Positions 28,640 through 39,142 are shown, numbered from the stretch's first letter. The stretch: DNA of 64,000 bases from Sediminitomix flava (GCF_003149185.1 NZ_QGDO01000003.1:576379-640378); one strand, 5' to 3'. A program made the numbers and translations. Notes: a model not told the origin generated them from the sequence alone.

Positions 28640-29167
28640 ATGATGAGAAACTTAAAATATATTATTTCTCTTTTGGTCTTGTCGAGCTGTTTGGGTTATC
28701 CTAAAACTGTAGAGCCTGTAAAAGATTTTGAATTGGATAGTTATTTAGGAACATGGTACGAGGTGGCACGATTGGATCACTCTTTCGAGCGAGGTTTGGA
28801 ACAAGTATCCGCTACGTATTCTATGCGATCGGATGGAGGTGTAAAAGTTTTGAATAAAGGTTTTGATACTGAAAAAGGAGAGTGGTCAGATGCAGAAGGG
28901 AAAGCCTTTTTCGTCAGAGAAAAAGATGAAGCTTATCTAAAAGTATCTTTTTTCGGTCCTTTTTATGGCAGTTATGTTGTGTTCGAATTGGATAAAAAGA
29001 ATTATCAGTATGCTTTTATTTCTGGTGATAGTGAAAAGTATTTATGGTTCCTTTCTCGTACACCAGTAGTCAGTGATGAGTTGAAAAATCATTTTATTGA
29101 AAAAGCAAAAAGCTTAGGGTTTCCTACCGATCAATTGATATTTGTAAATCAAATTCCGAAAGATTAA
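28640..29167 (+). CDS. blc: Bacterial lipocalin (Blc-like outer-membrane lipoprotein)
   Basis: Lipoprotein signal (SSC) and lipocalin SCR1 motif LDSYLGTWYEVARLDHSFE. Confidence 0.8.
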   Translation: MMRNLKYIISLLVLSSCLGYPKTVEPVKDFELDSYLGTWYEVARLDHSFERGLEQVSATYSMRSDGGVKVLNKGFDTEKGEWSDAEGKAFFVREKDEAYLKVSFFGPFYGSYVVFELDKKNYQYAFISGDSEKYLWFLSRTPVVSDELKNHFIEKAKSLGFPTDQLIFVNQIPKD

Positions 29168-30783
29168 TCTATAGCTTTCCATTCTAAATAAATAAACTTC
29201 GCGGACTTGAAATTTGGAGGACATACAAGTTTGGTCAATAATCCTTTCTGAAAAACAAAAGCACTCATCGCACTAAGGTCTACTTGATGGGCTAATGTAT
29301 TCGAACTAATCAACTCAATTTCTTTAGGACTTAATTTATTCAGATGTGATCGGTGAAAAACATTTAAACCAGTGAAAGTATCATAGTACTGATGGAAGCA
29401 AATAAGTAGTCCTAGCGTTTGAACTGTGGAGTCATCACATTCTATTTTTTTCATTAAAGAATGAAAAGGAATATGTGTTTTTATCTCTGTTGAGAAATTC
29501 TGATTCCAAGGAATGATTTGCCCTTTTTCAAGCTCAAAATAGAAGGCGTCTGTAAGTGTTTTTGTTCCTAAAATATGAGCTGAAATATTGGTCAAATTCT
29601 GATTAAAGATATCAATTTGTAGTTCTTTACTTAGTTCGTTTTTGTATTCAATATGATTTGAAATCTGATTTAGAATTTTGTTTCGTTCCGTTTCTGTATA
29701 AATAGGTGGAAGTAACGCGCCTCCTCTATAACTCATTTTTCGATACAGATTAACCATGATTTTTTCATTGATATCATTATCGTAGGCAGACATGGCTGTC
29801 TTCATCCTAAATCTGATATTCTCTCTGAGCCGTTTTGGACTAATGACTTTTACGCCATCTCCAAAGCCAAGAATATCTTTTTCCAACTCGAAATTATGTT
29901 GCACTTTCAGCGAAATGATGATTCCAAACTGATTTTGTTCCTCTAACTTTTGTGACGCATGAAATGGCTTTGTAAGTACATAGGGAGCATGTTTTTGAGT
30001 GACAAATAATCTCACATCTTCTCCTTTCTGATTGGGATTGACGGTCACACCAATGGTATCCTTGAAATACGACTGCGGATCAAAATCGGGGCTTTCCGTA
30101 TATGGCTGTTCACTTGCTTTTATATCAAGAATTCGATCAAGTGCCAAATTGAAAATACCTTTGTTTCCTCCCAATTTCCCGATAATAAACCATCTATTTC
30201 TAAACTCTTTCAAAAGGTATGGAGACATATGAAAGTCTTTCGGGTATCGAGACTTGAAAGATTGATAGTTTAGCGTGATTGTTCGTTTTTGAGTAATGGC
30301 TTTGTATAAAGGGTCAAGCCATTTTAATCCTTTCAAATTTTCATTCTTCTCAAAGTCAATCACAGATGCTGTCTGATTCTTCTGAGAGTAAATGTGGTCT
30401 TCCAATTTTTGCACCATTCCGTCCAATTCTCTGAAATGTGAAAAACCTTGGAACTGTTTCATAAACTCTATGGCTTCTAAAAGCTTTCCTAGATCTTGTT
30501 GAGAGATGGGAATATTTGTAATACTATAGTTAGCATCTTCATACTGATAATACTTCTTCTCCTTAACTATAATTGGTGCATTATAGCCCAGTTTATCACT
30601 ACGCATCATCTGAATATCAGATTGTATGGTGCGTTTACTTATACCTTTGTCAATTCCTTCATATTCGTATAAAGCTTCCGAACAAGCCTCAATCAAATCT
30701 TCTAAAGTCCATTTTCTGAAGTTGTTTTGCAGACATTGGTCAATGGTTTTGTAGCGTATTAAAGCGTTTCTATTTACTGGCAT
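29164..30783 (-). CDS. WYL-domain transcriptional regulator with an extra ~230-aa C-terminal domain
   Basis: N-terminal wHTH (MPVNRNALIRYKTIDQCL...) and WYL domain (ITLNYQSFKSRYPKDFHMSPYLLKEFRNRWFIIG). The start is placed at the internal ATG (30783); the ORF extends to 30852. Confidence 0.7.
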   Translation of the reverse strand: MPVNRNALIRYKTIDQCLQNNFRKWTLEDLIEACSEALYEYEGIDKGISKRTIQSDIQMMRSDKLGYNAPIIVKEKKYYQYEDANYSITNIPISQQDLGKLLEAIEFMKQFQGFSHFRELDGMVQKLEDHIYSQKNQTASVIDFEKNENLKGLKWLDPLYKAITQKRTITLNYQSFKSRYPKDFHMSPYLLKEFRNRWFIIGKLGGNKGIFNLALDRILDIKASEQPYTESPDFDPQSYFKDTIGVTVNPNQKGEDVRLFVTQKHAPYVLTKPFHASQKLEEQNQFGIIISLKVQHNFELEKDILGFGDGVKVISPKRLRENIRFRMKTAMSAYDNDINEKIMVNLYRKMSYRGGALLPPIYTETERNKILNQISNHIEYKNELSKELQIDIFNQNLTNISAHILGTKTLTDAFYFELEKGQIIPWNQNFSTEIKTHIPFHSLMKKIECDDSTVQTLGLLICFHQYYDTFTGLNVFHRSHLNKLSPKEIELISSNTLAHQVDLSAMSAFVFQKGLLTKLVCPPNFKSAKFIYLEWKAID

Positions 30784-30959
30784 CTCAAAAAATTTTGAGA
30801 AAAATAGGAAATATTTTCTTCTACGCAAAAAGACTGCGCAGTAGGTGTTCACCTTTGAATTGTAAGTTAAACGGAAGGTAGTTTCAGAAGGGCTACACGG
30901 TGTTTGAGCAATCGCAAAAAATATACTGTCTGTTTAGTTTACTAGCAATAAGGTTCTCT

Positions 30960-31145
30960 GAGATAGAGGTTCGAATCCTCTCCTTTAAGGTGGTGCAAGG
31001 GTGAGCACGCAGAGGTTTTGCACTGTTTACGGAGGTTCGAATCCTCCCTTCGAAAGAAGTAGCATAGGGGTTAATGCACAGTTACACGTTTGTTGTCGGT
31101 TCGAATCCGACCTGTTTAAATACAGTAGTTCAATTGGCAGAACAA
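30960..31145 (+). ncRNA. Cluster of tRNA-like elements: three tandem T-arm motifs plus D-arm-like hairpins (pseudo-tRNAs / tRNA-like ncRNA)
   Basis: GGTTCGAATCC within 5-bp stems at ~30965-30981, 31031-31047 and 31095-31111. D-arm-like hairpins occur at 30993-31008, 31062-31077 and 31128-31143. Unit 2 (30984-31055) has acceptor, D and T arms but an unpaired anticodon arm. Confidence 0.35.
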
Positions 31146-31450
31146 TTTCCGAAGTCTGTTTCGCTTCTAAAACTGAAACACCATAAGGTAAGTACTCTTA
31201 GTACATGGCAGATAAGCTAGACTTAGATGCACATTGACCAGTACTTTGAGCAGTAAAGGATACCGTTAGTTGTATTTGATGAGATGAAATTATGTATCAA
31301 TTGCTTTTTTAAACTCATAAGATTTTTTGATGCAATGATAGCATGAGTTCATCTTTTTTAAACAGCAAACTCAATGGATGCCCGTATTCGGCAATGATGT
31401 ATTAAGAGGCTTACTCTTTTTTTATAGAGAACAATAACCAATACATAAAA

Positions 31451-32551
31451 ATGAAAAAGGTAAGAATAAACAAAGGGAAAATAGGTCTCGTTTACCGAGC
31501 GAAGGATTTGAACAGAGTAATATTAGACGGAGTCTATTGGCTTTCACCATTTGAACAAGTTGAAATCTTGGAGATGGAAGGTGCTTTTAAGCCTAGCCGA
31601 AATTTAAATCTTTACTTAGTTCATGAAGATTTATCTGAGCATTTGGATGTGATAGAAATCAAAGATCAAGAAATCGCTTTACGATATGAAAATGGAGTTT
31701 TCAAAGAAGTTTTGAGCACGACAGGTAAGCATGCTTATTGGAAAGGATTAAACTCTAATAGTTTTATCAAACAGAAGATTTCTGATGTAGAAATTCCATC
31801 TGATTTTGATCTAAATAAATTAAGCTTGGCTGGTGTATTTCCATTTGTACGTTCATTTCATATTGATACTTTCGAGAAAGGGTTACTTTATGTTGATGGC
31901 GATTTCTACAAAGAATTAGGTGCAGGTTATCACTATTTTTGGAAGAATGCACACAACATATCTTTACGAAAAGTGGATTTGCGTGAGCGCCAACAAGAGA
32001 TTGTTGGGCAAGAGATATTGACCAAAGATAAAGCTGCTTTACGCATCAATTTTACAGCACAATTCAAAGTAACAGATATCCGAAAAGCGTTAGAGGATAA
32101 TCAAGACTATGAGAAACAATTATATGTTTTGACGCAATTGGCTTTGAGAGCTTTTGTTGGTTCTTTGACTTTGGATGAGCTTTTGGAAAGAAAAGAAAGT
32201 ATATCGAAAGAGGTATTAGATAGCTTGAAAGAGAAAGTCTCAGACTTGGGTGTCTCATTGATTGATGCTGGAATAAAGGATATTATTTTGCCGGGTGAAG
32301 TGAAAGAAATCATGAAGCAAGTTTTGGTAGCTCAGAAACAAGCTCAGGCAAATATTATCACTCGAAGAGAGGAAACAGCTTCTACCCGAAGCTTATTGAA
32401 TACCGCAAAATTGATGGAAGACAATCAAATGCTCTTCAAATTGAAAGAGATGGAATACATTGAGAAGATCGCAGATAAGATCAATACTATTTCCGTCTCT
32501 GGAGGGAATCAGGTCGTAGACCAATTAAGAGACTTGTTTATCAGAAATTAG
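31451..32551 (+). CDS. SPFH/band-7 domain protein
   Basis: Band-7 core (ILTKDKAALRINFTAQFKVTD...) and a C-terminal coiled-coil typical of the stomatin/HflKC superfamily. Confidence 0.65.
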   Translation: MKKVRINKGKIGLVYRAKDLNRVILDGVYWLSPFEQVEILEMEGAFKPSRNLNLYLVHEDLSEHLDVIEIKDQEIALRYENGVFKEVLSTTGKHAYWKGLNSNSFIKQKISDVEIPSDFDLNKLSLAGVFPFVRSFHIDTFEKGLLYVDGDFYKELGAGYHYFWKNAHNISLRKVDLRERQQEIVGQEILTKDKAALRINFTAQFKVTDIRKALEDNQDYEKQLYVLTQLALRAFVGSLTLDELLERKESISKEVLDSLKEKVSDLGVSLIDAGIKDIILPGEVKEIMKQVLVAQKQAQANIITRREETASTRSLLNTAKLMEDNQMLFKLKEMEYIEKIADKINTISVSGGNQVVDQLRDLFIRN

Positions 32552-32559
32552 AAAAAGCA

Positions 32560-33333
32560 ATGAAAGAACAGATCAATAAAGTATTTGAAGGGAGGGAGGA
32601 AATCCCTCTTTTCTATATCGAAAGTGGAAGTCGACTTTGGAATATAGCAAGTCCCGATAGCGATTATGATGTTCGAGGTATTCACCTTCAATCTATAGCT
32701 CAAAAGTATGATTTTCAGAAACACAGAGATGTGATTGAAGTAATGGATGGTGACTTCGATTTTGTCTCTTATGATTTAGATAAGTTTCTGAATTTACTTT
32801 TAGATGGTAATGCTACCATATTGGAATGGTTCCGATCTGACATCATTTATTTCTCAGATATAAAAAACTTTGAAGCATATCAGTTGAAGATTTTAGATCA
32901 TGTCAATTTTAAGTCCATATTCTATCATTATATATCTTTGGCAAAGAAGCATTATCAACTTTTAGAAAGTGGAAAGAAGTTTACATACAAAGTGATCTTT
33001 TACTGTATTCGAGCTTTGTTATCTGCTGATTTAGCTGCTCAAAATAGATTAGCAGAATTGGATATTGAAAAGCTCTTTTCTCAATTTGACGAAGAAAATG
33101 AGGTGATTGTCCTTGCAAAATCTTGTTTAGATCAGAAACGAGCAGGAAATGAAAAGCAGTATGTTGAAGAAGAAAAACGAGAGCATATTCTTAGGGTGTT
33201 AAATGTATATAGAGAACGCTTACTGTTGAATCTTCCAAATGAGAATCACAATAAAGAGAAGCTTCGAGAGCTTTTAAGAGCATTTGCTTTTGAAGTTAAA
33301 TCAAGTTTTTACCATAAAGCAGAAATTGCTTGA
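32560..33333 (+). CDS. Predicted nucleotidyltransferase (PF10127/RlaP-like, RtcB-associated)
   Basis: N-terminal GSRLWNIASPDSDYDVRG (a GS...D.D pol-beta-like NTase motif); immediately upstream of RtcB. Confidence 0.5.
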   Translation: MKEQINKVFEGREEIPLFYIESGSRLWNIASPDSDYDVRGIHLQSIAQKYDFQKHRDVIEVMDGDFDFVSYDLDKFLNLLLDGNATILEWFRSDIIYFSDIKNFEAYQLKILDHVNFKSIFYHYISLAKKHYQLLESGKKFTYKVIFYCIRALLSADLAAQNRLAELDIEKLFSQFDEENEVIVLAKSCLDQKRAGNEKQYVEEEKREHILRVLNVYRERLLLNLPNENHNKEKLRELLRAFAFEVKSSFYHKAEIA

Positions 33334-33371
33334 ACGGTAAATGATTTTTTAAACGATTAAAGAATTAAGAA

Positions 33372-34778
33372 ATGAAATATACATCTAAAGATATTATTTC
33401 AATTGGCTTTGAAGGAAAAGCGATTAGTTTGGCTTTAGAATACATGAGTCAAATAGCAGAAGAAGATGTAGCCGATGCCCTTGATACCTTAAAGCTATTA
33501 CATACGGATGTTACACTTTTTGTTGAACATCCCGATTTGAAGGATTTGGCAAATTGTCTTCTAGATAAAAAAGAAGCTCCTCAGCCAATTGAAATCTTAG
33601 ATCAAGCTTTACCCTATGAGATTTATGGGGCTAATGGAATAGAAGATGGGGCTTTAAACCAAATGGAAACAGTCATGAAATTACCCGTGGCGAGAAAGGG
33701 AGCTTTGATGCCCGATGCTCATCAAGGGTATGGCTTACCAATTGGTGGTGTTTTAGCGACTGAAAGTTCAATCATTCCTTATGCAGTGGGTGTAGATATT
33801 GGTTGTAGAATGTGTATGAGTATTTTTGATCTTCCAGTTTCTATGTTAGAAGATCGAAAAGGAGAGCTGAAAACGATTTTGAATAATGAAACTCGATTTG
33901 GGAGAGATACTTTCAGAAATCCTATAGATCATGAAATTTTGGCGAGTCCTCTTTTTAATGAAATTGATATCGTCAAAAAGTTGAAAGATAGAGCTGCTAA
34001 ACAAATCGGTTCTTCGGGTGGCGGAAATCACTTTGTGGAGTTTGGAATTACTGAAATTCACGAAGATGATCATGAATTGGGTTTGAAAAAAGGGAAATAT
34101 TTGGCACTGCTTTCACATTCGGGTTCGAGAGGATTAGGTGCTACTATTGCCAATCATTACACCAAAATAGCCATGAATCAATGTCTTTTACCAAAAGAAG
34201 CAAAACATCTGGCTTGGTTAGATTTGAATAAAGAAGAAGGACAAGAGTATTGGCTTGTTATGAATTTGGCAGGGGATTACGCCTCGGCTTGTCATCATCA
34301 AATTCATGATCGAATAGCAAAAGTATTGAATGAAAAACCTCTCGCTATGTTAGAAAATCATCACAATTTTGCTTGGAAGGAAGTCGATCAGAATGGGAAA
34401 GAATATATTGTTCATCGGAAAGGAGCGACACCAGCTGGAGAAGGCGTTTTAGGTGTTATTCCTGGTTCTATGACTGCGCCCGGTTTTATTGTTCGAGGAA
34501 AAGGAAATCCACTTTCGGTAGATTCGGCAGCACATGGAGCAGGGCGTCAGATGTCAAGAACTGCGGCTAAAAAGACCTTGCAGAAAAGTGATGTGATTCA
34601 GCATTTGAATGATCACGGAATTGAATTACTCGGAGCAGGACTCGATGAAGCACCTATGGCTTACAAGGATATTCATTCGGTAATGGAGCACCAAAAAGAT
34701 TTGGTGGATATCGTCGGTACATTTCTACCTAAAGTGGTCAGAATGTGTGGCGATTCTAGCTTTAAAGAAGTAGATTGA
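33372..34778 (+). CDS. rtcB: RNA-splicing ligase RtcB (3'-phosphate/5'-hydroxyl RNA ligase)
   Basis: All RtcB metal/GTP motifs are present: MPDAHQGYG, GGGNHF, HSGSRGLG, ENHHNFAWKE and HRKGATPA. Confidence 0.85.
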   Translation: MKYTSKDIISIGFEGKAISLALEYMSQIAEEDVADALDTLKLLHTDVTLFVEHPDLKDLANCLLDKKEAPQPIEILDQALPYEIYGANGIEDGALNQMETVMKLPVARKGALMPDAHQGYGLPIGGVLATESSIIPYAVGVDIGCRMCMSIFDLPVSMLEDRKGELKTILNNETRFGRDTFRNPIDHEILASPLFNEIDIVKKLKDRAAKQIGSSGGGNHFVEFGITEIHEDDHELGLKKGKYLALLSHSGSRGLGATIANHYTKIAMNQCLLPKEAKHLAWLDLNKEEGQEYWLVMNLAGDYASACHHQIHDRIAKVLNEKPLAMLENHHNFAWKEVDQNGKEYIVHRKGATPAGEGVLGVIPGSMTAPGFIVRGKGNPLSVDSAAHGAGRQMSRTAAKKTLQKSDVIQHLNDHGIELLGAGLDEAPMAYKDIHSVMEHQKDLVDIVGTFLPKVVRMCGDSSFKEVD

Positions 34779-34786
34779 TGAAGAAA

Positions 34787-34816
34787 GTCTGTGCACAAGA
34801 AACACAGGCTTTTTTT
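34787..34816 (+). terminator. Rho-independent terminator after rtcB
   Basis: 7-bp stem gtctgtg/cacaggc (one G.U pair) with a 9-nt loop, followed by T7. Confidence 0.55.
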
Positions 34817-34852
34817 CATTTATAGGATAATAGGGAGTTAAAGTTTTTAACT

Positions 34853-37800
34853 TTGTACCTTCAAAAGTTTCAAAACAGACTTCCAAAAATTCTCATGATT
34901 ACGAATTCTTTACTTGATAGCTATACTGACTTTGAACAAAAAATTCAAAGATACCCAGAAGATCAACAACTCAAGCTTGTCACGCTAATGTTGTATGTGG
35001 GCTATTCGGGAGAGTCTATTCAGACCATCAAAAGGGATTTTTATAGAGTGATAGAAGTATCTCAAGCGTTCAATCAATCCGAATTGAATCTGTTACTCGA
35101 AGAAGTGTTTGTCTGTAAATTTTTAGATGATGAATCTTTCCAGTTTCAACGTATTTATAAAGTAGATTCTGCTGATCTTTTTGTGAGTTGTGCACACTAT
35201 TTCTTTTTTACCTTAAATCAGCATTCTCTTTTTGAAACTTACCAATCCAATCTGAGTGCAAAACAAAGCAGTAAGTATAATTCATATTGGAATGAGCGAG
35301 TGAAACAAGATAATATCATTCGTGACTTCTTTATAGATCAGCCAATTTCTGAAAGGCTTGTTCAGCTTAGTTATCTGTTAGCTACAGTTGAGTTTTCTCA
35401 ATCTCCAATTGCTGCAGATTTAGTTTTGAGTTTTGTAGCTCTCTGCCAACTGAAAAAATGTTTTCCATCTTTCTTAATTGAAGATGATTACAATTTGAAT
35501 CAGATCACTCAACTTTTATTGAAGGAGCTTTATCATGGAAAGTTAGCATTGGAGAGGCTCACAAACTGTTTAACTACGCTTTACGAATTGACTTCTAGCG
35601 AAAGATTTCTAATGCTAAAGTCACTCTTAAATCATCAGTTTAAAGGGAAAGAGTTTGCTATAAAAAATGAGCTTAAGTCCGATTTTTATCAAAGACTAAT
35701 TCCATATGCTAACCTTATAAATCATAAGAATAGTGAAGTCCTAAAGAATTTTTTGTCAGAAAGTGGAATCGCTGATCTTTCCAAAGAAGCGAAGAAGAAA
35801 TCGTCTAAGAATTGGAAGTTACTTTCTCAGCAAAAGGAAGTATTGTTGGTGTTTTTTCTACTTCGAGAAGAATATACGCACAGAGACTTTTTATTCAACA
35901 GATATAAATTTCTCCTCAAATCAAATACCACTCAAATCCTTTTTTACGAACATCTGATTGATCTTCTTATTCTTTTTAAAACAGAAATAGATGTCGATTG
36001 TAAAAATTACAAAGAGGATGTATTGAGCTATTGGAAAAGCTATTTCGATGATGCTTTCAAACAGCTTTCCCCTCTTTCGTTTCCAATCATTTTATTTCTG
36101 CTCAAAGAAGTTTTCAAAAATGAGTTTTATGTCACTGATGAAATTGTTGAACAACTCAATTTCAGAGCTTCAAGTTATCATCGAAAAGGGTTGAATTGGT
36201 ATGCTTCTATAACCGCAGAACTCTGTGTGCGATTTAACGATGAATGGCTGCAACCTCAGTTTGAAAGAATGCTTGTAGAAGATGGGTTTCAGTTGAAAAA
36301 TATCTTTGAGCAAGAAGACCCGAACGATTGGAAAGCTTTAGTGGCCAAAATGGAAAAACTTGCTGACAGGCTTAAAGAAATTGATGAGGAAAAGAAAGAA
36401 CAAGAGAACGCCACGCAGCATCGTTTGATTTGGGTGGTTTCTCCAAAGTACCTTCAAGTCAAACCCTTTGAGCAGAATCGTTTGAAATCTGGGAAGTGGG
36501 GTAAGCCGAAAAAGATTTCAGATCAGAAGTTAATCTCAAAAGATATAAAAGGGGCTATTGAACTGGATTTTGAAATTCTGAATCATGCATACCAAACCAA
36601 TAAAGGGTATTATGAAGATTATGTAGCCTATGAAGTTCTCGAAGTTTGGAAACGATTGGAAGGACATCCAAATGTTGTTTTGGAAGAAAATATAGATCAG
36701 TCAGTGACGGTGACTAAAGAAGAAATCGAAATATCAGTTGCTGAAAATGGAGATTTCTATGAACTGAATTTTGGACAAGATTTCAATATGAACTTTCCTG
36801 TCAAGCAAGAGAGTACGACACGTTTTACTTATTTCAATGTCGATGAAAAAGTAAAAGAGTGGTTTAGCACCTTTCCACAAGGTGTTCTGATTCCGAAAGA
36901 AGCGAAGAATGAATTGAAAGCAGTTGTAGGACAGTTGAGCAGAAATCTTCATGTGCATTCTAAGGTTGATGAGATCAGAGAAGAGCTTCCCGAAATCTCT
37001 GCTGATACGCAGCTTTATGCTTTGCTTACACCAAAAGGAAATAACATTCAACTGAATTTATATTTCAAGCCTTTTTCTACACAGTTACCTTATGTTGTTC
37101 CGACCAAAGGAAAGGAAGCTTTGATCGAGGATGTGCAACGTGTGCGTACAAGAGCTGTTCGTGATTTTAGAGTAGAAGAGGAAATTATACGAAACTTTTT
37201 TGTCGATAGACCGAATCTTTTCAATACCCATGATGGGCATTTTTCTTGGGAATTGACTGACCGAGTAGAAGCACTGAATGCACTAATGGAATTGCAGTCG
37301 GGAGCTTTCAAAGCAATTATAGAATGGCCAAAAGGAGTGAAGTTTCAGTTATTGGCTTCAGCAGATGTTTCTCAATTGTCGATGTCTGTAAAAATGAAAA
37401 AGACCGATTGGTTTCATTTGGATGGCGAGCTGAAAATCAATGAAGAAATTGTCGTTTCTCTGATGGAACTTCTTTCCAAATACAAAGAAAATCCAAGTTT
37501 ACAGTTTGTAGAGGTTCGGGAAAATCAATTTATCTCTTTGACCAATAAACTGAGAACTCAGTTGGCAGCCTTTGAGAATTTTGCTGAAGACTTTAGGCAG
37601 GGAATTGATATGCATCCTTTAGTGACCTATGGCATTCTTCATGAGTTGAAAGAGAAAATAAATCTTGATGCAGATCAAGCATGGACAGAATTTGAGGATA
37701 GAGTAGAAACAGCTTATGCTACTGAGTTCTCATTACCAAAAAATCTTCAAGCTACCCTAAGAGATTATCAGTTGGACGGTTATCAATGGCTTTCAATACT

Positions 37801-39142
37801 TTCTGCTTCTGGGGCAGGAGCGTGTTTGGCAGATGACATGGGACTGGGGAAAACTTTACAAGCAATTACGCTACTTTTAGCACAAGCTAAAGATGGTGCT
37901 TCTTTAGTAATCGCTCCTTCCTCAGTGACTTTCAATTGGGTGAAAGAAATACAGAAGTTTGCACCAACGCTCAACGTACATTTGCTTTCTGAAGTCTCTA
38001 AGCGAGAAACACTGATTAAATCTTTAGGGCAGAATGATGTTTTGATCTGTAGTTATGGACTTTTACAGACGGGTATTCCTGCACTCAGAAAAAAAGGCTG
38101 GAATGTAATTATTTTGGATGAAGCGCAAGCCATCAAGAACAGATCGACTAAACGTTCTGAAGAGGCGATGAAGCTGAAAGCAAAAACTAGAATTCTGACG
38201 ACGGGAACACCTATTGAAAATAATTTGGGCGAACTCTGGAATCTCTTCCAGTTTATCAATCCAGGTTTGTTGGGAGATTGGGAGTCATTCAATGACAACT
38301 ATATCTTAAGAATCACGTCTGATGATGACCTTCATGCTAAAGTAGCTCGTCGAAATCTTCGAAAAATTATTGCTCCTTTTATTCTTAGAAGAACGAAGAG
38401 TGAGGTGTTGGAAGAGTTACCACAGAAAACAGAAATGGTGCTCAATGTAAAAATGTCAGAAGAAGAGTCAATTTACTATGAGGCATTGAGAAGAACGGCA
38501 ATTGGTGAGATTGAGGACATCATTGAAAAGAAAAAAGAAGGCGGGGCTTTCAAAGTCTTGGCAGAGCTGACCAAACTTCGTCAAGCCTGTTGTCACCCAA
38601 CATTGATCAATCACGAATGGCAATGGGAGAGTAGTAAACTAAGTCTTTTCTTAGAAACCGTAAAAGAATTAAAAGCAGGAGGGCACAGAGCACTTGTCTT
38701 TAGCCAGTTTGTGAGTTATCTGAATATTCTAAAGGTCGAACTAGAAAAAGAAGGCGTTTCTTATCAGTATTTAGATGGTTCTACCACTCTTAAGAATCGA
38801 GAAAAAGCAGTCAATGATTTCCAAAGTGGAGAAGGAGATGTCTTCTTGATTTCTCTAAAGGCTGGAGGAACAGGGTTAAATCTCACTACAGCAGATTATG
38901 TCATTCATATGGATCCGTGGTGGAATCCTGCCGTAGAAGACCAAGCCACAGACAGAGCTTACAGAATTGGGCAAGAAAGACCTGTGACGGTCTACAGACT
39001 AATCACACAAAATACAATTGAAGAAAAAATGATTCAGTTGCATCATGAAAAAAGACAATTGGCGGATGATCTATTAAGTGAAAGTGCGACCACAACAAAA
39101 CTAGATACGAAAGAACTTTTGAAGCTAATTACTGAGTTTTAA
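34853..39142 (+). CDS. SNF2/Swi2-family ATPase with a ~950-aa uncharacterised N-terminal region
   Basis: The C-terminal third has SNF2 motifs (LRDYQLDGYQWL, DDMGLGKTLQAI, DEAQAIKN, helicase-C block). The N-terminal region matches no family I recognise. Confidence 0.7.
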   Translation: MYLQKFQNRLPKILMITNSLLDSYTDFEQKIQRYPEDQQLKLVTLMLYVGYSGESIQTIKRDFYRVIEVSQAFNQSELNLLLEEVFVCKFLDDESFQFQRIYKVDSADLFVSCAHYFFFTLNQHSLFETYQSNLSAKQSSKYNSYWNERVKQDNIIRDFFIDQPISERLVQLSYLLATVEFSQSPIAADLVLSFVALCQLKKCFPSFLIEDDYNLNQITQLLLKELYHGKLALERLTNCLTTLYELTSSERFLMLKSLLNHQFKGKEFAIKNELKSDFYQRLIPYANLINHKNSEVLKNFLSESGIADLSKEAKKKSSKNWKLLSQQKEVLLVFFLLREEYTHRDFLFNRYKFLLKSNTTQILFYEHLIDLLILFKTEIDVDCKNYKEDVLSYWKSYFDDAFKQLSPLSFPIILFLLKEVFKNEFYVTDEIVEQLNFRASSYHRKGLNWYASITAELCVRFNDEWLQPQFERMLVEDGFQLKNIFEQEDPNDWKALVAKMEKLADRLKEIDEEKKEQENATQHRLIWVVSPKYLQVKPFEQNRLKSGKWGKPKKISDQKLISKDIKGAIELDFEILNHAYQTNKGYYEDYVAYEVLEVWKRLEGHPNVVLEENIDQSVTVTKEEIEISVAENGDFYELNFGQDFNMNFPVKQESTTRFTYFNVDEKVKEWFSTFPQGVLIPKEAKNELKAVVGQLSRNLHVHSKVDEIREELPEISADTQLYALLTPKGNNIQLNLYFKPFSTQLPYVVPTKGKEALIEDVQRVRTRAVRDFRVEEEIIRNFFVDRPNLFNTHDGHFSWELTDRVEALNALMELQSGAFKAIIEWPKGVKFQLLASADVSQLSMSVKMKKTDWFHLDGELKINEEIVVSLMELLSKYKENPSLQFVEVRENQFISLTNKLRTQLAAFENFAEDFRQGIDMHPLVTYGILHELKEKINLDADQAWTEFEDRVETAYATEFSLPKNLQATLRDYQLDGYQWLSILSASGAGACLADDMGLGKTLQAITLLLAQAKDGASLVIAPSSVTFNWVKEIQKFAPTLNVHLLSEVSKRETLIKSLGQNDVLICSYGLLQTGIPALRKKGWNVIILDEAQAIKNRSTKRSEEAMKLKAKTRILTTGTPIENNLGELWNLFQFINPGLLGDWESFNDNYILRITSDDDLHAKVARRNLRKIIAPFILRRTKSEVLEELPQKTEMVLNVKMSEEESIYYEALRRTAIGEIEDIIEKKKEGGAFKVLAELTKLRQACCHPTLINHEWQWESSKLSLFLETVKELKAGGHRALVFSQFVSYLNILKVELEKEGVSYQYLDGSTTLKNREKAVNDFQSGEGDVFLISLKAGGTGLNLTTADYVIHMDPWWNPAVEDQATDRAYRIGQERPVTVYRLITQNTIEEKMIQLHHEKRQLADDLLSESATTTKLDTKELLKLITEF

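Follow-up and report, generated by a model that had tools for sequence, protein, structure and literature searches.

A probable WYL-regulated Band-7/RtcB RNA-repair locus with a predicted bipartite, tRNA-like RNA in Sediminitomix flava

Bacterial RtcB systems are widespread, and to our knowledge their natural substrates, cofactors, and signals are largely unknown outside the enterobacteria. One rtcB gene lies within a 64,000-nucleotide (nt) stretch of the Sediminitomix flava genome (GCF_003149185.1 NZ_QGDO01000003.1:576379-640378; the whole stretch is hereafter the window, with positions counted from its first letter), where genes for an SPFH/Band-7 protein, an RlaP-family nucleotidyltransferase, and the RNA ligase RtcB follow one another on the plus strand and are preceded, across a long intergenic region, by a divergently transcribed gene for a WYL-domain regulator. 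This locus raises the question of what the intergenic region contains, and of what kind of system the four genes form with it. A preliminary description had taken tRNA-like elements in this region to be motifs of a shared control region; they are instead part of a structured RNA gene, and the intergenic region is predicted, from covariance models built on relatives, to be almost wholly one bipartite RNA of ~560 nt on the operon strand. The locus as a whole is probably a WYL-regulated Bacteroidota form of the Band-7(SPFH)/RtcB repair system. The genes and their terminator are as follows (E values are for Pfam models).

29164-30783, minus strand: WYL-family regulator, 539 amino acids (aa; WYL PF13280, E 2.7e-10; WCX PF25583, E 3.6e-10), laid out as a putative N-terminal helix-turn-helix (HTH), WYL at aa ~156-222 (counted from M1 at 30783), WCX, and a degenerate PhyH-like region at aa ~336-539
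31451-32551, plus strand: SPFH/Band-7 ("slipin") protein, 366 aa (Band_7 PF01145, E 1.2e-32)
32560-33333, plus strand: RlaP-family Pol-beta-type nucleotidyltransferase, 257 aa (PF10127, E 1.1e-40)
33372-34778, plus strand: RtcB 3'-phosphate/5'-OH RNA ligase, 468 aa (PF01139, E 6e-83)
34789-34816, plus strand: terminator-like hairpin (CTGTG...CACAG) followed by GC and T7, 3' of rtcB, read from the sequence

The tRNA-like sequence upstream of the SPFH gene is real and non-random, as had been proposed: GGTTCGAATCC is present in three copies within 140 nt and absent from the rest of the 64 kb (0.01 occurrences expected by chance), and identical T-loops are found at the corresponding place upstream of SPFH in relatives. 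These relatives were sampled as 80 loci, one per species, from GTDB genomes via alignment of 14 SPFH homologues, and their genera and families include Ohtaekwangia, Chryseosolibacter, Fulvivirga, Roseivirga, Carboxylicivirga, Draconibacterium, Pedobacter, Flavobacterium, Runella, and Saprospiraceae. The structure of the first part of the RNA (domain I) was derived from an alignment of 13 relatives, from which the covariance model R1 was built; a further model, R3, represents a single module. The fold of the 13-relative alignment starts with a 5' hairpin, followed by a closing stem, a T-arm, a closed acceptor-like hairpin, and a D-arm, and continues with a second T-arm, hairpin, and D-arm, an anticodon-like hairpin, and a 3' hairpin. 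Over its 55 pairs, 89% of cells are paired (40-49% after sliding of partners); compensatory changes are seen at 38 pairs, and none of 500 shuffles reaches the observed values. Irrespective of a WYL gene, 74 of the 80 loci carry a full-length R1 match located 250-550 nt before the SPFH start on the SPFH strand; among the six loci that lack a match, L023, L042, and L065 are short of upstream sequence and L021, L027, and L037 have a compact layout. The window itself matches R1 at 80 bits (E 4e-21) and carries three modules, a number shared with a few relatives, most having two. The parts of the window RNA, together with the second domain and its model R2, are listed here.

30863-30952, plus strand: RNA 5' leader containing a P1-like hairpin (about 30899-30932), all boundaries being tentative
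30953-31017, plus strand: domain I module 0, circularly permuted tRNA-like, with closing stem CUCUG/CAGAG, T-arm, short acceptor-like hairpin, and D-arm (R3 27.2 bits, E 2.4e-6 for the whole window)
31020-31082, plus strand: domain I module 1, with closing stem ACUGU/ACAGU, T-arm GGAGGUUCGAAUCCUCC, hairpin CUUC-GAAA-GAAG, and D-arm (R3 37.9 bits, E 4e-12 for a 341-nt region without filters; R1 aligns it as module 1)
31083-31151, plus strand: domain I module 2, with T-arm GUCGGUUCGAAUCCGAC, hairpin CUGU-UUAAAU-ACAG, and D-arm UAGUUCAAUUGGCAGAAC (R3 44 bits, E 8e-12)
31151-31179, plus strand: 3' element of domain I, hairpin GUUUC/GAAAC with conserved loop CUUCUAAAA (R1 alignment)
31186-31421, plus strand: domain II, rod-like RNA (R2 21.7 bits, E 8.5e-6 for a 701-nt region without filters)

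At the 3' end of domain I, a GAAG upstream of the terminal hairpin may form a pseudoknot with the loop CUUC; in the 13-relative alignment GAAG/CTTC is 96% paired and the hairpin stem carries compensatory changes (helices 10 and 11). At the 5' end, the leader gives a weak match to the 5' part of R1 (2.6 bits) and resembles, by eye, the ATAG-hairpin-ATATGCTGCT element conserved among relatives. Many relatives have an additional conserved block, AAAAUCUUCC..GGAAGCGCGG..AAGACCUGAUGAG.GUUUCUGUAUGG, 30-80 nt upstream of the R1 match (e.g., L004 5410-5489), and the RNA may therefore reach further 5' than the model; the window holds a short version only (GGUAGUUUCAGAAGGG, 30875-30892). A hammerhead-like reading of a "CUGAUGAG" block upstream of the RNA in relatives was discarded, as the GAAA core partner is lacking.

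The permuted order of T-arm, acceptor-like hairpin, and D-arm is that of the tRNA-like domain of YrlA (RF02553), with which the modules also share a closed acceptor-like hairpin and an opened anticodon stem. A permissive Rfam scan places a sub-threshold YrlA match, overlapping module 2, at 31064-31173 (E 3.7e-7), with 40 bits where the gathering score is 69. The RNA differs from YrlA in having three modules in tandem and an extra rod domain of ~235 nt, and the positions of the model's Ro-binding stem are mispaired in the window alignment. No TROVE (rsr/Ro60) match was found in Pfam scans of the large window open reading frames (ORFs) from 25.8 to 39.1 kb, nor among the frequent neighbor families scanned in relatives.

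The ~270 nt separating domain I from the SPFH start codon are structured as well. Domain II of the window is closed by a helix of ~20 bp between its ends (31188-31206 with 31397-31415), followed by U7. The end-to-end duplex has a predicted energy of -25.9 kcal/mol, compared with -15.4 +/- 3.2 for shuffled sequences, and the same arrangement recurs in 16 of 16 diverse loci (window included), where the first and last ~25 nt pair despite differing sequences (-21 to -40 kcal/mol; shuffled sequences, -9 to -21). RNAalifold applied to one clade recovered a rod of 61 pairs with 31 compensatory pairs; this structure was then extended with the covariance model R2. R2 matches were obtained in 58 loci, each abutting the end of the R1 match and ending 30-60 nt before the SPFH start. 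Among these 58 sequences 88.7% of cells are paired (40-48% in slid controls), and compensatory changes are present at 60 of 61 pairs; the alignment was fitted to R2 and so leans towards the structure, with which the independent duplex test agrees. The window copy retains GGAUACCG (31258-31265) and the terminal helix and is otherwise divergent. Alignment of 16 diverse domain II sequences with MAFFT followed by RNAalifold gave no structure. RNAfold of the window RNA alone was not above shuffles (z = -0.87), single-sequence energy being uninformative here. Sequence-only nhmmer searches with the window elements found almost no matches in relatives, so that structure-aware models were needed.

In the window the RNA ends ~30 nt before the SPFH gene, and among the sampled loci it is almost invariably linked to this SPFH subfamily. 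Rfam 15 holds no family for either domain, returning only tRNA and sub-threshold YrlA matches in the window and 12 relatives. R1 and R2 describe a strong candidate for a new Rfam entry; at present ARAGORN and the Rfam tRNA model mis-call its modules, in the window and in relatives, as tRNA genes of low score.

The gene neighborhood around this RNA is conserved in part. Searches with the window proteins (tblastn) found a WYL orthologue (49-65% identity over the first 335 aa) in 38 of the 80 loci, belonging to several Bacteroidota orders, so that the adjacency of WYL and cassette is not peculiar to this genome; in 34 of the 38 the gene immediately precedes the cassette in divergent orientation, and in L054, L064, L075, and L078 it is divergent from rtcB itself. 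RtcB is present in 56 loci by ORF clustering, and RlaP homologues in six. RlaP is therefore an occasional accessory, and the conserved core consists of RNA and SPFH (with RtcB). Other recurrent neighbors encode a Thg1-like enzyme, an AAA_33 kinase-like protein, an RNase_T exonuclease, an RF-1-domain (PrfH-like) protein, and a Y_phosphatase3 protein; by their predicted domains these are RNA-end-processing enzymes, in the shuffled "syntax" of RNA-end repair systems. A 174-aa TPR protein, found in 27 loci, lies between SPFH and RtcB in most loci without WYL (e.g., L014, L016, L019, L025, and L028, about +1150 from the SPFH start), and appears to be an alternative accessory to RlaP.

Two further arrangements were seen in relatives. 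In some that lack WYL (L062 4396-8663, L068 4280-8634, L079 4713-5351, L047, L029), the RNA-SPFH cassette sits inside arrays of canonical-scoring tRNA genes (Rfam 50-70 bits), with roughly 20 tRNA-model matches each in L062 and L068, where the tRNA runs lie downstream of SPFH in place of rtcB. In about 20 relatives a class-II tRNA-Tyr(GUA)-like gene, called by ARAGORN and scoring only 36-41 bits with Rfam, stands between the promoter and the tandem RNA (e.g., L003 5250-5334, L045 5374-5456); in L021 and L037 this gene, at about -113 to -29 from SPFH, is the only RNA called between the operator described below (about -170) and SPFH, and L023 and L027 have an operator at the matching place. This gene, absent from the window, is probably the "b7a-tRNA" of the literature.

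The proteins encoded in the window bear out the preliminary description in most respects. The four ORFs lie where it had placed them, SPFH-RlaP-RtcB forms one co-directional unit with gaps of 8 bp (32551 to 32560) and 38 bp (33333 to 33372), and the terminator-like hairpin and T7 at 34789-34816 correspond to the terminator it had noted after rtcB; owing to its 9-nt loop, the plus-strand version of this hairpin was not listed by the terminator scan, which gave the opposite-strand version alone. A Pfam hidden Markov model search agrees with the assignments to WYL, SPFH, RlaP, and RtcB, and places the 257-aa protein in the RlaP family and not in an unrelated nucleotidyltransferase family. The RlaP sequence contains the SGS...DSDYD motif; it had no match among PDB sequences or NCBIfam models. 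The catalytic motifs of RtcB had been described as intact, and alignment with P. horikoshii RtcB (PDB 1uc2/4dwq) shows all active-site counterparts to be kept: Asp95 and Cys98 (GVDIGC), His203 (GGGNHF), His234 (HSGSRG), His329 (NHHNF), and the nucleophile His404 (AAHGAGR), such that both the metal ligands and the guanylylated histidine are conserved. Against the NCBIfam model of the PrfH-linked RtcB type, the protein scored under the cut-off. Its first ~90 aa (aa 1-90, 33372-33640) form an N-terminal extension with no Pfam match, and this extension is kept in relatives, in which tblastn alignments begin at residues 1-7.

The SPFH protein, 100% identical to the S. flava "slipin family protein," had been labeled a membrane scaffold, a label which is not supported as to the membrane part: neither a transmembrane segment (maximum Kyte-Doolittle 1.17, 19-residue window) nor an N-terminal transmembrane or hairpin anchor is predicted. 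In the AF2 model (pLDDT 74) the N-terminus instead consists of three small beta modules, which are followed by a predicted SPFH core and a long, putatively oligomerizing helix. Best Foldseek matches were to stomatin, HflK/C, and prohibitin cages (E 1e-11 to 1e-8), and among the matches listed (best 50) the longest alignments were to major vault protein (MVP; 417-437 columns, E 5e-6). The predicted succession of beta modules, SPFH "shoulder," and long helix recalls the vault particle, composed of MVP, TEP1/TROVE, and vault RNA, whose MVP also belongs to a protein cage family with a small structured RNA as partner. The window protein differs in length (366 aa against ~860 aa) and in its best-scoring folds, a closed shell is not evidenced here, and the two RNAs are not related in sequence. 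As no membrane segment is predicted for it, the protein could be informative about the role of SPFH cages away from membranes.

Turning to the regulator, its start is ATG 30783 (MPVNRNALIRYKTID); orthologues all begin MP(V/L)NRNAL, and on the basis of this conserved N-terminus an alternative start at GTG 30852 was rejected. The intergenic region therefore measures 667 bp, longer than the 600 bp given previously, and the divergent orientation given with that figure stands. The protein has WYL and WCX domains, matches the PADLOC WYL model (E 9e-26), and had no NCBIfam match. Its N-terminal 90 aa are highly conserved among orthologues and give a weak match to an HTH (HTH_11, E 0.12). The closest solved chains are a "WYL domain-containing protein" (7tzv/7u02) and a "DeoR-family transcriptional regulator" (8tp8), which we take to be Caulobacter DriD, a regulator activated by single-stranded DNA (ssDNA).

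Orthologues of the regulator occur in a short form of 336-350 aa and a long form of 514-603 aa. A C-terminal PhyH domain that keeps WHQD...H...RRV, and is apparently active, is found in 16 of them (L002-L006, L008, L010-L012, L015, L020, L033, L040, L043, L050, and L051; Pfam PF05721, E 2e-11 in L010); the domain is absent from 18 and degenerate in four (the window, L024, L073, and L077). The window C-terminus aligns with a profile of the PhyH-type orthologues (hhalign 96.3%, E 1.7e-9), with WNQN in the place of WHQD and with loss of the distal His and of the Arg of the RRV motif. Because neither the HxD...H iron triad nor the 2-oxoglutarate-binding Arg of the PhyH/2-oxoglutarate-Fe(II) dioxygenases is preserved, the domain is predicted to be catalytically dead in the window.

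Between the WYL start and the RNA lie the predicted control elements.

30821-30844: predicted WYL operator CTACGCAAAAAGACTGCGCAGTAG, in which 7 bp separate two TRCGCA hexamers; the sole match in the 64-kb window, with 0.01 expected
30850-30857, plus strand: Bacteroidota-type -7 box (CACCTTTG), a putative promoter assignment

The Bacteroidota -7 box has the consensus TAnnTTTG. Transcription of the operon is predicted to start near 30863. The operator has the form TACGCA-N7-TGCGCA, and its occurrence tracks the WYL gene across genomes: motif and -7 box are found together upstream of the cassette in 36 of 37 loci that contain WYL, compared with 12 of 43 others, and the motif is doubled where inserted genes part WYL from the RNA. 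ACT[AG]CGCAAAAAGACTGCG[CT]AGT is common to all WYL loci between the WYL start and the RNA, and in nearly all of them "CTTTG" follows 10-14 nt 3' of the operator. From this co-occurrence of motif and gene, the WYL protein is predicted to bind the operator. The position of the site, 38-61 bp from the start codon of the WYL gene and overlapping the operon promoter in its -33 region, would fit repression or class-II-type activation, together with autoregulation. A scan for promoters and terminators found no excess of sigma-70-type sites, Bacteroidota promoters being outside the coverage of the tool. On the WYL 5'-untranslated side, a palindrome, CTCAAAA-AA-TTTTGAG (30784-30799), abuts the WYL start codon, and similar A/T-rich sequences occur in relatives.

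How much of this system was already known can be judged from several lines of work. A grouping of RtcB, Band-7, a tRNA-like RNA ("b7a-tRNA"), and RlaP was defined computationally in 2016 by Burroughs & Aravind (NAR; summarized in bioRxiv 10.1101/312249), and the gene combination, which the preliminary description had not taken to be characterized, belongs to this predicted class. YrlA is encoded inside an rtcB operon and sometimes stands beside Band-7 (bioRxiv 10.1101/312249). Likewise, the suggestion that the WYL protein acts as an RtcR/CARF-like sensor of damaged RNA is reasonable, and is not new: WYL/CARF factors have been proposed as sensors of cyclic-phosphate RNA controlling RNA repair (PMC9503650), and WYL regulation of RNA repair has been proposed with reference to the 2016 analysis (PMC7824862). 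Features of the Band-7/RtcB system are all found in the window: an RtcB-family ligase with a predicted intact active site, a Band-7 gene adjoining it with conserved linkage, a tRNA-like RNA adjoining the Band-7 gene, and RlaP as associated component. In the same system, as relayed second-hand, a YrlA-like RNA is occasionally present and the SPFH protein has been proposed as scaffold or cofactor. The locus described here departs from that account, to the extent the account is known, in its ~560-nt bipartite RNA in place of a single authentic-looking tRNA, in lacking the separate tRNA-Tyr-like gene, and in its defined WYL operator and WYL-PhyH fusion. As far as the literature was checked, we found no description of the operator, of a bipartite RNA with two or three tandem permuted modules and a rod, or of a membrane-free, MVP-like SPFH build, the 2016 paper being known second-hand in each respect; nor did we find one of a WYL-PhyH fusion of regulator and dioxygenase in an RNA-repair setting, or of its decay in S. 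flava.

Comparison with better-studied systems is informative. The rsr-yrlBA-rtcBA operon of Salmonella and E. coli likewise joins RtcB with one or more tRNA-like RNAs and a one-component regulator with a nucleic-acid-sensing domain, and its ring-shaped RNA-binding scaffold may have its counterpart here in SPFH. There, the CARF regulator RtcR responds to tRNA fragments, and the Salmonella operon is induced by damaged tRNAs (PMC7790460). The present locus contains neither a CARF-AAA+/sigma-54 RtcR nor the RtcA cyclase; it has instead a WYL-WCX regulator with a putative HTH, SPFH in place of Ro60/TROVE, RlaP, and a Bacteroidota-type promoter. In Anabaena, rtcB, a slipin gene, and a tRNA operon are under the common control of the TrcR repressor and are all induced by translation stress (PMC10272220), which mirrors the RNA-SPFH-RtcB cassettes in Bacteroidota tRNA arrays and offers, by analogy, experimental support for a functional link among rtcB, slipin, and tRNA genes; TrcR, in contrast, is a ribbon-helix-helix protein, its target genes are dispersed, and no tRNA-like RNA partner has been reported. 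With the WYL factors DriD, PafBC, BrxR, and CapW, the window regulator shares the WYL-WCX architecture (its HTH being putative), a divergent or autoregulated arrangement, a predicted repeat operator at the promoter, and the expectation of a nucleic-acid-derived ligand; it differs in its predicted target, an RNA-repair operon as opposed to DNA-damage or phage-defense genes, and in its additional C-terminal PhyH-like domain.

These data suggest a mechanism in which the WYL protein would bind the operator and control both transcription units. The WYL domain would sense an RNA-damage signal, most plausibly the fragments or ends left by metal-independent ribonucleases, and the operon would be switched on; by analogy with CARF in RtcR, the ligand is plausibly RNA with 2',3'-cyclic-phosphate ends. 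In the window regulator, the PhyH-like domain would probably serve as a binding or oligomerization module only. The bipartite RNA, made as the 5' part of the operon transcript, may assemble with an oligomeric SPFH ring or cage, much as Ro does with Y RNA or MVP with vault RNA, and the resulting particle may recruit or present broken tRNAs or rRNA. Pseudomonas RlaP adds one or two 3' nucleotides (PMC12776372), and RlaP here would restore one or two that had been lost, after which RtcB would join 3'-phosphate or 2',3'-cyclic-phosphate ends to 5'-OH ends. A broader proposal, which is possible and which we put forward tentatively, is that the uncatalogued RNA, with its three tRNA mimics and rod, is, throughout Bacteroidota, the obligate partner of a soluble SPFH protein of vault/MVP-like build, the two forming a Ro- or vault-like ribonucleoprotein for tRNA repair by RtcB and RlaP, switched by WYL via TRCGCA-N7-TGCGCA, with a sensor that carries an active PhyH domain in many species. 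If such a particle exists, Ro/Y RNA and vault biology would be linked to a bacterial RNA-repair machine. The locus is a compact Bacteroidota version of an RtcB system, with all parts mapped, and provides a defined operator, a regulator, and a large covarying RNA suited to structural work.

Several observations weigh against the reading of this locus as a WYL-regulated repair system. The link between operator and WYL protein is one of co-occurrence, and the motif is also present in ten loci with no WYL gene within +/-6 kb; the data are compatible with either activation or repression by the WYL protein. The HTH of this protein is putative, below Pfam significance, and its ligand is conjectural, the nearest solved relative being presumably the ssDNA sensor DriD. 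The RNA-SPFH complex is suggested by genomic linkage, the domain II match in the window is weak, and the 5' leader and P1 are tentative. RlaP is found in so few of the relatives that the exact four-gene set is uncommon. More generally, the system is read from its genes, with a predicted function for each part, and what the 2016 analysis states on WYL and on the extent of the RNA is known second-hand.

The main rival explanation holds that the ~560-nt RNA is not a trans-acting SPFH partner and is instead a cis-acting leader, similar to an attenuator or riboswitch, that gates read-through into SPFH-RlaP-rtcB; in one variant it might bind a tRNA-modifying or repair factor, or RtcB itself. The placement of the RNA would suit such a leader, since it is always on the operon strand and directly upstream of SPFH, ending 25-60 nt before the start codon; in the window a U7 tract follows the terminal helix, and no TAnnTTTG-type box was seen, by reading, between RNA and SPFH ATG. 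However, the U-tract lacks conservation, being absent from, e.g., L077 and L024, for which reason the helix was rejected as a conserved intrinsic terminator, and a helix enclosing ~200 nt would make an odd one. Additionally, the RNA-SPFH pairs of L062 and L068, which lie within tRNA arrays and have no rtcB downstream, suggest a processed, stable RNA, and the nearest relative, YrlA, is a stable ribonucleoprotein RNA that is itself encoded in an rtcB operon. We consider a cis-acting leader unlikely. A weaker rival, that the tandem modules are decoys or sensors for tRNA-targeting toxins and the cassette mainly a defense or antitoxin device in place of a repair scaffold, we regard as quite improbable: the modules do mimic the elbow of T-arm, acceptor, and D-arm and are multiplied two to three times, WYL regulators are typical of defense loci, and relatives associate with large tRNA arrays, yet the usual target of anticodon nucleases is missing, because the anticodon stem of modules 0 and 1 is opened into the closing helix and the window lacks the consensus anticodon-like hairpin. 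Furthermore, the neighbors are repair enzymes and not effectors, and no relatives of the SPFH subfamily were found in IMG/VR viral contigs, which leaves a phage origin unsupported.

The simplest reading, an ordinary or decayed tRNA-Gln gene between unrelated neighbors with WYL adjacent by chance, is hardly tenable. ARAGORN and Rfam both call a tRNA at 30984-31055, but at 34.2 bits this call falls well below the 50-70 bits of genuine tRNAs in related loci, and its acceptor stem, judged against the 7-bp stem of a cloverleaf, has one mismatch and two G-U pairs. The call spans two modules of the covarying permuted architecture and combines module 0's D-arm with module 1's T-arm, a mis-registration; moreover, both the adjacency of WYL to the cassette and the presence of the operator are conserved across orders. 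This reading is already contradicted by these results.

Beyond the cassette, the window continues on the plus strand with a gene that begins 75 nt after rtcB and whose adjacency to the cassette is not kept in relatives (34853-39142). It encodes a 1429-aa SNF2-family helicase, in which an N-terminal region of ~970 aa without assignment precedes SNF2-rel_dom and Helicase_C domains within the last ~460 aa.

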